NCBI GenBank assembly: GCA_004322465.1 | Contig: SCVO01000083.1 | Span: 6,983 to 70,982 of the forward strand | DNA length: 64,000 bases | Reading direction: 5' to 3' | DNA from: Candidatus Nitrosotenuis sp. | GTDB lineage: Archaea > Thermoproteota > Nitrososphaeria > Nitrososphaerales > Nitrosopumilaceae | Shown: in pieces, positions 7,720-13,578 of the stretch | Layout: each line of letters opens with the position of its first letter | Numbering within the stretch: position 1 is the stretch's first letter | Made by a program: the position numbers and the translations under genes | The notes under the pieces: generated by a model | What the model was told of the DNA's origin: nothing | What the model saw: only the letters and a program-made list of their open reading frames with translations | Database searches by the model: none

Positions 7720-8466
7720 TCAAAGTTCACCATCACCACCATCGTAAAGACTGTCCTTGCGTTTTCTTTGAGTCAGGTCATCAAAACTAGGTTCAAGTCG
7801 GTACTGATCCATAATCCTGTCTGCTGCCAGAGTCTCAGAGGGCGTTCCAGAACCTGAAAACAACTCGTCCGCCTTCTTCATCTCATCTGCCAGGTGCTCA
7901 AACTCAGGCATGCTTTCTCTTACTTCTAGGGCTTCGCTTTTCAGCTCATTCATCCGGTTTCTGATCTTGTCAACCTGTTCAAGGATGTCAGAGTGCCACG
8001 GTTGGGCTGGCTCATCTAGGAATTCTTTTGTAAATTCCAGTGCGGTGGTTTTGTCTTCGGAATTACTTGTAACCTCAAACGAGCGTTGGGCGACGCGGTC
8101 AGCCAGTTCGCTTGCCATCTCATATTTTTCTGCTGGAATCTCTTCGCCGTTCTTGAGATTCTTGAGTTTCTCCATTGCATCGTGAAGTATCTTGTCTGAG
8201 AACTCGTCCACCTCTTTTTGTGAGAATCTTGTCTCGTGTTGGATTTTTGGCACATTTACCTTGTAGGCGTTTGTGTCGGATCCAAAGTTTCCAGACATGC
8301 TGACTTCGTGCTTTTCGAGTTTGTTTCTTATCTTTCTGTCATACTCACTCATTGGAGGCGATGTGTGTCGGTATGCTGCTAGAGGATCCTTCTGTGAAAT
8401 GTGTCCTGACTTGTATCCACCATATCCACCGCCAAACCCCTTGGAGTTTTTCTTTCGGTAGGACAA
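7720..8466 (-). CDS. Hypothetical acidic helical protein, last gene of E2/JAB-E1 operon
   Basis: 248-aa ORF 1 nt after ATPase stop; Gly-rich N-terminus, ends LYDGGDGEL. Confidence 0.75.
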   Translation of the reverse strand: MSYRKKNSKGFGGGYGGYKSGHISQKDPLAAYRHTSPPMSEYDRKIRNKLEKHEVSMSGNFGSDTNAYKVNVPKIQHETRFSQKEVDEFSDKILHDAMEKLKNLKNGEEIPAEKYEMASELADRVAQRSFEVTSNSEDKTTALEFTKEFLDEPAQPWHSDILEQVDKIRNRMNELKSEALEVRESMPEFEHLADEMKKADELFSGSGTPSETLAADRIMDQYRLEPSFDDLTQRKRKDSLYDGGDGEL

Positions 8467-8467
8467 C

Positions 8468-10663
8468 TCAGCCTATCACACCATTGTTTCCGTTATCTTT
8501 CCGGTTTTGCTCATGGTCAGGAACGGTAGATCCAGTACCCTCGATGTTTCCGCTCTTCTCCGGGCCCTTTATTACATTGTCAAGTAACTCCACATAATCT
8601 CGAATCAATCCAATCCAAATCTTTTCTTTCGGAATGTTTTCCATTCTCTCCAGCTTTGATCTTGCAAACTGGAAAGTCGACTCTTCGCGGTATAGCAATA
8701 CCAGATCATCCACCTCCCTGTCAGTCAACACCCTGACCTTGTTCTCAACGTCCTTTGTTGAAAGCTCAATTTCCACTGCCTTGCGGTGCCCATTCAATTC
8801 CTCGTAGAGGTCTACCCTTCGACCGTCCTTGAGGTCATATTCCACTCTGCCGTTCCATCCCAATATCTTGTGCTTGACTCTAAGCACGTTGAGCCAATAA
8901 TGGTGCTCGTATCCTGGAACGCCAGAAATCCACTTCCAGTAGCCGATTCTCTGAGCAGGCCTGCCTAGAATCTTCATTATCTCCAAGGCATTTGGAGTAA
9001 GAGAAAAGTGGATTCTGTCATGGACCTTCACTGGGAATTTCTGAATTCTAATCAGGTTCTTGTCAAGTAGGTCTTGCTTCACCTTGGCAAATTTTCTGTC
9101 AGATATTCCAAGTGCCTCTGTTATCTGCTGTTGGTAGCTCCACTCGTGGAAGAACACATAGTCAAGAAGCAGCCACCCTTCTTTTGTGAGGTCTGGTAAG
9201 TGAACCTCCTCTGATTTCTTTTCGACCTGAACCATGAACATTCTGCTTTCTATTTCCTGTCGCTTCATGTCAAGCGCGGTAATGAGCGGCCTTGATCTTT
9301 GCAAGACATCTGCATCCGCCAGCAGGTCTCCTTTCTTTATGTCGGGAGTCTTTAGAACAAACGGCTTTGTTCTTCCGGCAACTCTTGCAATCCAGGTTCC
9401 CTTTTCCAGTTTTCCAAGTATTTTTTCAGAGTCTCTGTCCAGTCCAAGTGAAGAGGAGAGATCTCTTTGCTGATCAGTTTCAACTATGTTTCCAACAATC
9501 ATTGTTCCAGCATTGTCTTTGAATGCATCCATCACAAGATGAGGAAACTGAGTCAGTGCAAATGTGCCAAGCATCATCTCTCTGCTCTGGCTGAAAAAAG
9601 TAGCAAGTGGTGGTAACGACAGCTCAGTGGACACAAGGCTTCTTTCCTGGCCGCTGTATTGCGTAAGGTGTGCTTCGTCCATAATTATTTTACAGAATTT
9701 AGACTTAAACTCGCTATCTAGGGTGGACTTCCGGTTGAGTCTTACCTGGTTGTAGAGCCTTCGGTAAAACTCGTGCATTATTATAGTCTGGATAAGAAAC
9801 GATGCCACCGAAAAATCCAGTGGAAACATCTCGATTATGATTCGTTTTCTGAAGAGATCCTTGATTTCAAACCCGTATTTTACGTTGATTACTTTGTCTA
9901 GGGCCTGATTTATGTTGAATATTCTGTTTTCTGCGATTGCGGAATATTCGTTCTCCTTTCTGCTTTCACTGTGCTGTGACTTGAGATGGTTCTCAAGTTC
10001 GCGGAATGTCACCTGTCCTTTGTTGTGCTCGTACAACTCTTCTATTACGCGCAGAATGTGTGCGGGAGTTGCCATCAAGAGGCCCTGTGAGTGGGCTGCG
10101 ATATCCAGAACAATTCTCCACCACAGCTTTATGTCCATGCCTTCTGGGCAGTTTATCAAAACGTTGTATGCAAGCTCATGCCACCTTATGACATAAACGT
10201 CGTCGTATTTTTTGGCAAGGGTCCTGTAATCTTGTTTCCAGTCAAATGAAAGAAAACATATCTCATGCTGGATCAATTGATCAACAAGATTGAAAACCAT
10301 GGTAGTTTTCCCATGGCCTGACCTAGCAACTACAAATTCATTTTCACGCAGGTTCTCTGTGGTAAGACCAAACGGGTGAAGCACCCTGTCACCCGAACAC
10401 ACGTATCCTATGATCACCCCGTCTCCGACTGCATCTTCCTTTGATGGGAACGAGAGTAGGGGATTCTTTGATCTCATCGAGTGCTCGTTGAATTTGGTCT
10501 CAACCAATCTCTTTATCTTGTCAACCAGTTTCTTTCGTCTTCTCTCGTTTGCATATGGCAACATCCGTAACAGCGTGTCGATGTAGCCTCTTGGGAGTCC
10601 AGGAATCTTTGAGACCTTGTCCATTATCTCCTGTCTGAAATCGTCTATCTCAGACAAACTCAA
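8468..10663 (-). CDS. HerA/VirB4-like (DUF87) ATPase with C-terminal wHTH and PD-(D/E)xK-like domain
   Basis: Walker A ARSGHGKTT, Walker B IIMDEAH, C-terminal RVDLY...AVEIELS. Confidence 0.85.
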   Translation of the reverse strand: MSLSEIDDFRQEIMDKVSKIPGLPRGYIDTLLRMLPYANERRRKKLVDKIKRLVETKFNEHSMRSKNPLLSFPSKEDAVGDGVIIGYVCSGDRVLHPFGLTTENLRENEFVVARSGHGKTTMVFNLVDQLIQHEICFLSFDWKQDYRTLAKKYDDVYVIRWHELAYNVLINCPEGMDIKLWWRIVLDIAAHSQGLLMATPAHILRVIEELYEHNKGQVTFRELENHLKSQHSESRKENEYSAIAENRIFNINQALDKVINVKYGFEIKDLFRKRIIIEMFPLDFSVASFLIQTIIMHEFYRRLYNQVRLNRKSTLDSEFKSKFCKIIMDEAHLTQYSGQERSLVSTELSLPPLATFFSQSREMMLGTFALTQFPHLVMDAFKDNAGTMIVGNIVETDQQRDLSSSLGLDRDSEKILGKLEKGTWIARVAGRTKPFVLKTPDIKKGDLLADADVLQRSRPLITALDMKRQEIESRMFMVQVEKKSEEVHLPDLTKEGWLLLDYVFFHEWSYQQQITEALGISDRKFAKVKQDLLDKNLIRIQKFPVKVHDRIHFSLTPNALEIMKILGRPAQRIGYWKWISGVPGYEHHYWLNVLRVKHKILGWNGRVEYDLKDGRRVDLYEELNGHRKAVEIELSTKDVENKVRVLTDREVDDLVLLYREESTFQFARSKLERMENIPKEKIWIGLIRDYVELLDNVIKGPEKSGNIEGTGSTVPDHEQNRKDNGNNGVIG

Positions 10664-10892
10664 GACCCCTGAAGACTTTGATTGTAAGAAACGACATTAC
10701 CATTACAATCACTCCTGCAACTGCAAGTTGCAAGTAGACAGACGGAGAGTGCGGTGATATCATGTCGTTGAAGAACAGCATCAGAGAGATTGTTATGATG
10801 ACAATTCCTGCTCCCACTAGAAGTTTCATCACACTTAGAATAGAGCCGGAATTTCGGTTAGGACTTCGATACATACTCCTCAATCCTGCCAT
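10650..10892 (-). CDS. Small two-TM membrane protein
   Basis: Two hydrophobic helices; overlaps both neighbours. Confidence 0.7.
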   Translation of the reverse strand: MAGLRSMYRSPNRNSGSILSVMKLLVGAGIVIITISLMLFFNDMISPHSPSVYLQLAVAGVIVMVMSFLTIKVFRGLEFV

Positions 10893-11460
10893 CCAAATCC
10901 TTCATGTCGTCCTTGCCTCCCAGAACCTGAGAATGGGCGTAGAATGCCTCGGTGCCAAGGTCTGTGAGACGTTTGCCGCCAAGGAATGATGTAGTAACGT
11001 ATCCTGAATCTCTGAGAAAGTCAACAATCCCTTTCATTTCATCTTGTGGTATTCCAGATACTTTGTTCATGTCATGTTCGCCTGTTATGCCATTTCCAAT
11101 CATTAGGATGACCTTGAACACCTGCCTTGATATCGGATGAACCTCTCTGAGATCTTGTAGGCAGATTGTTTCGTTTCTGAAATCAATTGAACAGTTCTCG
11201 CAAAGTTTCTTGCCGCATTTTTTGCATAACGACATCTGATCAATTTTCCCAAAGCAATAATCGCACATTGTAATTCGTTTTGTGGTGACCACGCTGTCGT
11301 TTACTCTGGATACTTGCTCGCTCTCTAGCTCGCCTTCTCCTGCAACCTCTGTTCTCTCCTCCGTTATGATCTCGTCATTTGGTGATATGCTCTCAAGTCT
11401 TTGCAGTCGTAATTCCATCTCGCCGAGTTTTTCCAGAATTCTATCCGCGTCTGATGTCAT
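10858..11460 (-). CDS. Coiled-coil + B-box-like zinc finger + winged-helix protein
   Basis: CDYC-x9-CKKC-x4-CENC-x9-CLQD, then wHTH-like FLRDSGYV...LTDLG. Confidence 0.75.
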   Translation of the reverse strand: MTSDADRILEKLGEMELRLQRLESISPNDEIITEERTEVAGEGELESEQVSRVNDSVVTTKRITMCDYCFGKIDQMSLCKKCGKKLCENCSIDFRNETICLQDLREVHPISRQVFKVILMIGNGITGEHDMNKVSGIPQDEMKGIVDFLRDSGYVTTSFLGGKRLTDLGTEAFYAHSQVLGGKDDMKDLDGRIEEYVSKS

Positions 11461-13416: not shown

Positions 13417-13429
13417 TCAATCCACCTCC

Positions 13430-13528
13430 TTAGCACCCGCTAATCTCTAGGAGCATCTTGCTGTCAGAGCAAGTGTAGATTTGCGTTGAGATCCTGGACG
13501 AGTAGTCTGTTTTGCATTTTTGTTTCAT
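13430..13528 (-). CDS. 32-aa peptide MKQKCKTDYSSRISTQIYTCSDSKMLLEISGC at the head of the E2/JAB-E1 operon
   Basis: ATG 23-29 nt downstream of TTTTTTA TATA-like box (leaderless position); stop abuts the E2 RBS. Confidence 0.5.
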   Translation of the reverse strand: MKQKCKTDYSSRISTQIYTCSDSKMLLEISGC

Positions 13529-13561
13529 GATGTGGTAGTATACTGTCGAATAAAAAACAGG

Positions 13562-13578
13562 GAGCTCAACTTGAGCTC
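13562..13578. promoter_or_regulatory. Perfect palindrome GAGCTCAA-C-TTGAGCTC upstream of operon promoter
   Basis: 8-bp inverted repeat just upstream of the TATA-like box. Confidence 0.5.

Follow-up and report, generated by a model that had tools for sequence, protein, structure and literature searches.

A candidate Bub-like conjugation module, with a possible minimal peptide modifier, on an integrative element of ammonia-oxidising archaea

A stretch of 64,000 nucleotides from Candidatus Nitrosotenuis sp. (contig SCVO01000083.1, positions 6,983 to 70,982; hereafter the window) carries on its minus strand a run of seven co-oriented genes, from 13528 to 7720, followed by two tyrosine recombinases. 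Read in the direction of the genes, they encode a 32-residue peptide (pepA), a 214-residue protein with an E2-like domain, a 437-residue fusion of a JAB (JAMM) metallopeptidase with an E1-like adenylation domain (JAB-E1), a Zn/winged helix-turn-helix (wHTH) protein, a small protein with two transmembrane (TM) helices, an ATPase belonging to the FtsK-HerA superfamily, and a coiled-coil protein. With the adjoining 437-residue recombinase counted in, there are eight tightly packed open reading frames (ORFs), spaced from pepA to the recombinase by +13, +1, -4, -35, -14, +1 and -4 nucleotides. A preliminary description of this DNA had reported the mostly overlapping or near-abutting gene run and placed it on a mobile element; all of the ORFs are where it had put them, and the operon does lie in an integrated element, with tyrosine recombinases adjoining it here and an integrase in related loci. 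The gene upstream, of 149 residues, ends in a hairpin and T-run (13562-13578, minus strand; GAGCTCAAGTTGAGCTC then CCTGTTTTTT), which marks the 5' limit of the operon, so that the operon begins just past it. The neighbourhood is conserved: the gene set, in the order of the whole operon, is found again in at least 12 independent loci, far beyond chance. We hold it somewhat more probable than an even chance that this region constitutes the conserved core operon of integrative elements that form a rare family in ammonia-oxidising archaea (Nitrosopumilaceae), its first three products making up a conjugation module like that of Type I Bub systems.

The second ORF (12772-13416, minus strand, as for all operon genes) combines an N-terminal module of 37 residues, discussed below, with a domain of UBC fold at residues 38-214 (12772-13305). 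The 214-residue protein itself has no match in Pfam, NCBIfam, PADLOC or PHROGs. Its AlphaFold2 model has a pLDDT (predicted local distance difference test) of 71, with core residues 45-178 mostly at 75-90, and a Foldseek search of PDB with this model returned UBC-superfamily proteins (E2, UEV, UFC1 and a Med15-type chain of Mediator) as all of its first 16 matches. The matches include Ubc13, UbcH5c, Cdc34, Ube2V1 and UFC1, at modest scores: E-values of about 1e-2 (Ubc13 1e-2), probabilities up to 1.0 and TM-scores to the target of about 0.5. A narrow profile (A1), tried for direct detection, gave nothing meaningful against PDB sequences or Ubc13; the link to E2 enzymes comes from the fold search and from a broadened, family-wide profile (A5), for which 13 solved E2s rank first among PDB sequences (best 3we5_A, 6.8e-5). 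In the alignment, HxYsdGxiCY falls on HVYSNGHICA and W.r.Wt on WSPVLS, and the family cysteine falls on the catalytic cysteine. Four residues (P122, H143, C151 and W156) are invariant in the family alignment; the motif GHWYSDGRPC carries H143 and C151, the latter being the sole cysteine of the protein. Two remote relatives match known families, P0064 with Pfam Prok-E2_B (2.7e-6, over the curated cut-off) and P0070 with UQ_con (5.6e-6), and a family profile run against 1.84 billion representative proteins yielded only 25 relatives in all. The E2-like character first proposed for the protein is thereby upheld: by profile and modelled fold it is established as a true but very diverged UBC/E2 protein, and by alignment Cys151 is established as its predicted catalytic residue.

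The next gene (11457-12770) encodes JAB-E1, and both domains named in the preliminary description are recognised in the one ORF, Prok-JAB at residues 23-123 (Pfam, 2.7e-6) and ThiF at residues 168-372 (4.7e-27); PADLOC JAB models also match, with E-values down to 6e-13. All the active-site residues that had been picked out by eye, in this protein as in the E2, stand at the positions given for them. The metallopeptidase domain (12321-12770) bears the JAMM set E29, H91-x-H93-P-W and P-S102-x-x-D105, invariant over 10 loci of about 43-88% identity, and over the same loci the adenylation domain (11457-12293) keeps its nucleotide-binding and Arg/Asp/Lys motifs invariant, together with Tyr337 in the crossover-loop motif R-(K)-Y337-G-L. 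Zinc motifs of the form CxxC lie at 316-319 and 398-401, and between C319 and C398 there is no cysteine. What follows the JAB is one adenylation domain, about 270 residues long, and the nearest solved relatives of this E1 part (Uba4, MccB, UBA5, ThiF and Cap2, with E-values of 1e-9 to 3e-5) are single-domain, homodimeric E1-like proteins.

The place of MccB among the best solved matches, with the longest aligned stretch (residues 170-401), and the one or two small peptides encoded directly upstream bear on another reading of this gene. The E1-like domain would then be a peptide modifier of the MccB/PaaA type, making from the C-terminus of a small peptide a product like the ribosomally synthesized and post-translationally modified peptides, with no protein conjugation. 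However, the E-values of Uba4 and UBA5 are no worse than that of MccB, and every locus has, fused or adjacent, a JAMM peptidase and an E2 equipped for catalysis by its invariant Cys and His. Genes for export or immunity, as microcin clusters typically have, were not seen; we regard such a product as very improbable.

No CD-NTase, β-grasp or RING model matches any operon gene in scans with Pfam, PADLOC and related libraries. The absence of CD-NTase and RING had been noted at the outset, as had that of an evident ubiquitin-like modifier (Ubl); this last statement holds for β-grasp domains and otherwise needs revision, because the first 37 residues of the 214-residue ORF (13306-13416; MGKRVLTSDGKVIDLDKGTGIEHLPPESLAMEKHTYG), here termed pepB, are a conserved, Gly-terminated, E2-fused module and a likely modifier. 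Seven of the 18 close E2 clusters begin about 40 residues later than the window protein, and in these loci the missing N-terminal piece is a separate, overlapping small gene. Such stand-alone pepB genes, present in many relatives, encode 38-52 residues and end in [YF]G plus 1-4 variable residues; they occur in loci L011, L013, L014, L015 and L017 and as P0062, P0063 and P0069, with tails of F, L, VL, AT or SEDK. Their products terminate in EKHSYGF in L011, L013 and L015, in DSHTYGAT in L014, in HSYGL in P0063 and in RTFGVL in P0069, and the 52-residue gene of L017 ends in VPEPDSVEVQRHHYG-SEDK. In the window (HTYG), in most relatives and in the distant P0059 (NSFG), pepB is instead fused to the E2. 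G10 and G37 are the sole invariant positions in the 21 versions compared, and past G37 the conservation ends; the boundary between fusion and fission falls exactly after this glycine, with clean, short, variable tails in at least six independent stand-alone forms. Some longer "stand-alone" forms run on into E2 sequence, and these probably reflect frameshifts.

Processed ubiquitin-like modifiers are recognised by just such a pattern: a conserved module with an invariant glycine at its end, after which comes either the next protein, as a fusion, or a tail of 1-4 variable residues. By this sequence pattern, and by analogy, pepB is likely to be the modifier of the conjugation module, and it is present in every E2 locus examined. 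A conserved C-terminal glycine was also sought on every other operon product: the YDGGDGEL tail of the 248-residue protein is not a conserved di-Gly (relatives have YDSEV..), and the terminal glycine of the ATPase is not conserved among its relatives.

A number of observations weigh against this assignment. The pLDDT of pepB is only about 50-60, none of its 21 members matches Pfam, and no β-grasp is detectable in it; a likeness to the β1-β2 hairpin of ubiquitin that was seen by eye (TSDGKVIDLD against TLTGKTITLE) was rejected at an hhalign probability of 0.6%. The segment could be a docking extension of the E2, and there are other candidates for the modifier, namely pepA, with its near-terminal glycine, and two host ORFs of the ThiS/MoaD family. 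The cascade would on that account be real, residues 1-37 would serve the E2 for docking or regulation, as an extension that may also act in trans, and the protein conjugated would be pepA, trimmed to its glycine, or a host β-grasp protein of ThiS/MoaD/SAMP type. Poor modelling of the 37-residue module and its lack of a β-grasp fold speak for such an arrangement, as do the two host ORFs and the character of pepA itself.

The pepA ORF (13430-13528; ending in QIYTCSDSKMLLEISGC) is small and is conserved in some of the loci. It has in-frame counterparts in L003, L013 and L015 (where it is called as a 33-residue gene) and variant types in L001/L014 and in L002/L006/L011/L018. Comparison of the window with L003 shows 8 synonymous versus 4 nonsynonymous codon changes over 14 codons, and the synonymous changes at conserved residues argue that pepA is translated; an RNA hairpin, the other possibility entertained, is less likely than coding given these changes. 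Most variants have glycine at or near the C-terminus, and the window form ends in -GC. The 32-residue "peptide" of the preliminary description thus looks to be coding, but the better-conserved peptide is pepB: pepA is missing from L007, L010, L020 and L021, and the region upstream in L017 yielded none. In those first four loci (L020 being from genome G050 and L021 from G084), an ORF of about 135 residues, containing EKVRTLEIITNQNSDSKIEQVAYAALCALDEKRP and ending in HKIRNPNIAEAA, takes the place of pepA and runs right up to the E2 start codon. The precedent of Bub, furthermore, puts a Gly-ended modifier N-terminal to the E2, and a docking segment leaves unexplained the invariant terminal glycine and the variable tails of the stand-alone genes. 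On balance, a modifier other than pepB appears rather unlikely.

Downstream of JAB-E1 lie four genes of a different kind. The largest (8468-10663) encodes a 731-residue protein that is confirmed, by family match and modelled fold, as a predicted HerA-like ATPase within the FtsK-HerA superfamily. Its motor core (residues ~70-445) contains the Walker A motif GHGKT at 116-120 and matches Pfam DUF87/HerA (1.4e-5). The AlphaFold2 model has a pLDDT of 87.5, and Foldseek matches to the core, over a range of 1e-9 to 9e-14, include the DndH C-domain (9e-14, TM-score 0.74), archaeal and defence-associated HerA (~1e-11), VirB4 (3e-10, TM-score 0.70) and TrwB; viral FtsK/HerA-type ATPases likewise match. 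Residues ~494-555 form a MarR-like wHTH (~5e-3 against solved MarR-type regulators), and residues ~585-699 an α-β-β-β-α-β domain in which E608, D618, E631 and E633 are invariant and K642 is nearly so. The latter domain has no significant sequence or family match (CoiA_nuc scores 0.1 in one member only). Of the "HerA-nuclease ATPase" first described, then, the HerA-like part is borne out, while the nuclease is plausible only, being predicted as PD-(D/E)xK-like from an order of secondary structure that fits.

The three smaller products share with the ATPase a distribution wider than that of the E2. The 200-residue Zn/wHTH protein (10858-11460) had been called a "B-box" finger, a name that is not established: Pfam scores are non-significant for B-box (0.05) and wHTH (0.065) alike, and an alignment of 13 homologues, E2-less elements included, shows an N-terminal coiled coil, an acidic stretch, four CxxC-type pairs (two Zn sites) and a C-terminal wHTH. 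Its presence in E2-less elements argues against a dedicated E3. The gene for the 80-residue 2-TM protein, with two hydrophobic helices (10650-10892), overlaps both of its neighbours; homologues are present in 9 loci, the E2-less L033 and L035 among them. The 248-residue coiled-coil protein (7720-8466) found no family match in Pfam, PADLOC and related library scans. It has an N-terminus rich in Gly, Tyr, Lys and Arg (KGFGGGYGGYKSG) and a C-terminal tail that is basic and then acidic (consensus RKR…YDSEV..; YDGGDGEL in the window), kept in elements with or without E2/E1. The tail has the look of a short docking motif for a partner.

All four genes, together with the integrase, occur in elements that have no E2/E1 (L005 and L033-L036). 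They are therefore the backbone of the integrative element and not parts specific to one seven-gene system, as had been supposed, and E2/JAB-E1 is an add-on in a subset of elements. L033 (G000:C48, 2965-12216) is a second element of the same family in the window genome, with the order TrmB, Zn/wHTH (182 residues), TM (76 residues), ATPase (728 residues), coiled coil (297 residues, ending in YDSEVEGY) and integrase.

This distribution also raises the prospect that E2/JAB-E1 is accessory cargo in a preferred slot, with no functional tie to the ATPase, and that the backbone serves transfer, partition or replication of the element, in the manner of VirB3-VirB4, the archaeal Ced DNA importer or Streptomyces TraB. 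In favour are the E2-less elements themselves, in one of which (L033) an AAA ATPase (293 residues, Pfam AAA 6e-26) occupies the slot together with three small ORFs, and the fold matches of the ATPase, which include VirB4 and TrwB; a small TM protein beside a VirB4-like ATPase recalls the VirB3-VirB4 pair. Against this stands the constancy of the pairing in the other direction. The E2/JAB-E1 module always lies directly upstream of the Zn/wHTH gene, usually the 2-TM gene, and the ATPase gene, and the ATPase is adjacent in every E2 locus examined (the window, L001-L004, L006, L013, L014, L017, L018, G050, G084 and G237). Overlapping genes, moreover, suggest translational coupling. The pairing is kept even in L017, where the ATPase is only ~25% identical to that of the window and the E2 matches Prok-E2_B. 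An ORF of 114 residues lies between the pepB gene and the E2 in this locus (9657-10001); it has a motif, YTYPETYPAKKF, that recalls RWD/UEV (an inactive E2 variant), and has no Pfam match.

The pairing recurs, too, in the unrelated architecture of L037 (138-13642, GC content 46%), where no integrase is seen within 15.5 kb. That locus has a CBASS-like E2, a JAB-like-ThiF protein (P0115), two Prok-JAB proteins, Band_7, two TM proteins with RWD/UEV-like C-termini, a 59-residue ORF, an HNH protein, SMI1_KNR4 and FHA, and across the entire motor domain its 963-residue ATPase matches the profile of the window ATPase (hhalign 99%, 8e-18). The locus may be one member of a wider class of HerA systems linked to conjugation. 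Since no E2 locus lacks the ATPase, and since the pairing survives to L017 and recurs in L037, the E2/E1 pair appears functionally tied to the ATPase, a link that is correlative; a mere cargo slot we consider improbable. A looser parallel exists in Sulfolobales, where a Urm1-like gene stands beside a membrane-associated HerA-like ATPase (PMC2948915).

The element family is rare. Among 401 genomes of the class the E2 is present in 4 and the ATPase in 14, and within the same genus 3 genomes out of 24 or more carry the E2; the closest labelled relatives are Nitrosotenuis, Nitrosotalea and Nitrosarchaeum. A metagenome scan added 3 loci and a scan of viral contigs found no relative; one hit of the genome scan, L009 (Sphingopyxis), was discarded as spurious, the match being in a non-coding frame. 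An integrase is adjacent in 13 of 13 Nitrososphaeria loci. In the window this position is taken by the tyrosine-recombinase-like protein of 437 residues (6410-7723, minus strand), whose gene overlaps the last gene of the operon by 4 nucleotides. It has no match in Pfam, PHROGs or NCBIfam, and genes at the equivalent position in related loci match Phage_integrase. It shares the motif WMGHKGGIEGKYT with the neighbouring recombinase of 431 residues (4923-6218, minus strand; Phage_integrase 5.3e-6, Phage_int_SAM_1 1.3e-4), and may represent a diverged archaeal integrase family. Upstream of the operon is a wHTH regulator of the TrmB family (PF01978; 15347-15715, minus strand), found at the same position and in the same orientation in most related loci, where it is accompanied by variable cargo (GmrSD, AbiV, Schlafen-like, SMC-like and metal-resistance genes).

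The ends of the element were sought by a direct-repeat search, which gave no att-like pair, and by comparison of the flanks with genomes of the same genus, which was uninformative. A palindromic box, TTTACAAATGTAAA (TTTACA-N2-TGTAAA), lies upstream of many genes of the island between 19171 and 48675 of the window, for example at 23400-23420, 36997-37017, 41756-41775 and 48630-48675, often with a shared downstream stretch of ~30 nucleotides. Probably a single regulator of the metal-resistance cargo uses this box as its operator. Positions 16196-64000 were also set against a complete genome of the same genus (G050:C1:1574698-1628991), in which the E2-ATPase block is followed by P-type ATPase genes at similar distances. 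This suggests a large (>50 kb) metal-resistance island common to the two genomes and bounded on one side by the integrase block.

A working scheme for the module can be put forward. The JAMM domain would cut after Gly37, either freeing the tag from the E2 or trimming the 1-4 residue tail of a stand-alone tag; the E1 would adenylate Gly37 and hand the tag, via Tyr337 or directly, to Cys151 of the E2, which would move it onto a lysine of the target. Tagging might then regulate, or be directed by, the membrane-associated ATPase-nuclease machine, much as Cap2/Cap3 tune CBASS, in the setting of conflict with other mobile elements or viruses or of DNA handling by the element itself. By analogy with Cap2/Cap3 and Bil, the protein tagged could come from the backbone, in which case the ATPase-nuclease would be controlled, or from an invading virus or a competing element. 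As to the ATPase, its relatives of DndH/HerA type and the defence-rich neighbourhood point by analogy to a role in defence, and the strict integrase linkage, the small TM partner and the likeness to VirB4/TrwB point in the same way to a role in DNA transfer. The scheme as a whole, in which a 37-residue peptide without a β-grasp is a genuine E1/E2-conjugated tag, freed by JAMM-E1, passed along a mixed Tyr-oxyester/Cys-thioester relay and controlling a membrane-associated HerA-type ATPase-nuclease, is tentative, and we would sooner expect it to fail in some part than to hold throughout.

Were the 37-residue module to prove the modifier, E1/E2 conjugation would need no β-grasp domain, and this would be the smallest "ubiquitin-like" modifier known. 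Bub would likewise acquire a relative in archaea, one in which the E2 cysteine is retained although the E1 is already of the Tyr type, a possible intermediate between thioester cascades and those that are all oxyester. Studies of Bub still lack a concrete candidate for the target or partner; here the strict linkage to a single ATPase-nuclease subfamily provides one. The coupling seen in the distant L037, which lies outside this archaeal family, is a hint of HerA systems regulated by conjugation that would form a class so far unrecognised. A conserved backbone is also defined here for a family of integrative elements of ammonia-oxidising archaea with defence and metal-resistance cargo. E2-like enzymes were long considered absent from archaea apart from eukaryote-like operons (PMC2948915).

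Several known systems invite comparison. The Caldiarchaeum/Asgard ubiquitin operons likewise cluster archaeal genes for E1, E2 and JAMM proteins, but theirs have true ubiquitin, a canonical Cys-bearing E1, a RING E3 and an Rpn11-like deubiquitinase, none of which was found here. Among HerA-effector systems (Sir2-HerA, DUF4297-HerA, DndH, HerA-NurA) the ATPase core fold is shared (Foldseek 1e-10 to 9e-14), as is a nuclease-type domain partner; here the nuclease-like domain and a wHTH are fused C-terminally, the partner is a small TM protein and an integrase is always adjacent. The BilABCD system has a separate E2, a JAB that pre-processes a modifier with residues past a conserved glycine, and no E3, as here, but its E1 is built of IAD, AAD and CYS domains and BilA is a β-grasp protein, whereas the archaeal E1 is a single adenylation domain and no β-grasp is seen. 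In Type II CBASS (a cyclic-oligonucleotide-based antiphage signalling system), E1, E2 and JAB chemistry regulates a partner effector and the C-terminus activated is not that of a β-grasp protein. The PADLOC E1-E2 and JAB models of CBASS are the best defence-library matches of the window genes, and these matches are partial only, as had been expected. In CBASS, however, Cap2 joins E2 to E1 and the JAB stands alone, in contrast to the JAB-E1 fusion and separate E2 described here, which moreover come with no CD-NTase and no cyclic-nucleotide effector.

The closest counterpart is Type I Bub (6E.1) of bacteria, which has three products, BubAB, BubCD and the DUF6527 protease BubE (PMC11601596). There the JAB-E1 fusion BubCD (E28, H91, H93, D104) cleaves the Ubl-E2 fusion BubAB after a conserved glycine, and the BubCD E1, without a crossover Cys, needs an invariant crossover Tyr (PMC11601596). 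The archaeal module agrees in having its candidate modifier joined to the N-terminus of the E2, a conserved glycine at their junction, a JAMM peptidase N-terminal to a single-domain, ThiF/UBA5-like E1, near-identical JAMM positions (E29, H91, H93 and D105), a Cys-less crossover loop with an invariant Tyr (Tyr337 being equated with BubCD Y370 by position), and a location on mobile elements. It differs in its modifier, of ~37 residues with no detectable β-grasp as against 1-3 β-grasp domains in Bub; in its E2, with an invariant Cys151 in place of the Ser-His-Asp set of Bub oxyester chemistry; and in its archaeal host and obligatory link to the Zn/wHTH protein and HerA-like ATPase. DUF6527 has no match in the operon or the whole genome (a control genome was positive), and tblastn searches of plasmids for BubCD-like proteins recovered only the E1 domain of assorted ThiF proteins, never a JAB-E1 fusion. 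Neither BubCD nor BubB is among the PDB matches of the window E2 and E1. With Cys and not Ser in the E2, no DUF6527 and no β-grasp modifier, the module is not placed inside Type I Bub; by its architecture and residue positions it may be said to work like Type I Bub without being filed as a member. The preliminary description had taken the set for an undescribed conjugation system, and it matches no characterised system exactly, nor did literature searches find a description of this archaeal gene set, but the layout of E2 plus JAB-E1 has its precedent in Type I Bub (PMC11601596). What is new, judging from the sequences and from these analogies, is likely the combination: conjugation genes resembling those of Type I Bub, but with a Cys in the E2 and a minimal peptide as the candidate modifier, linked to a HerA-like ATPase on an integrative element of archaea.

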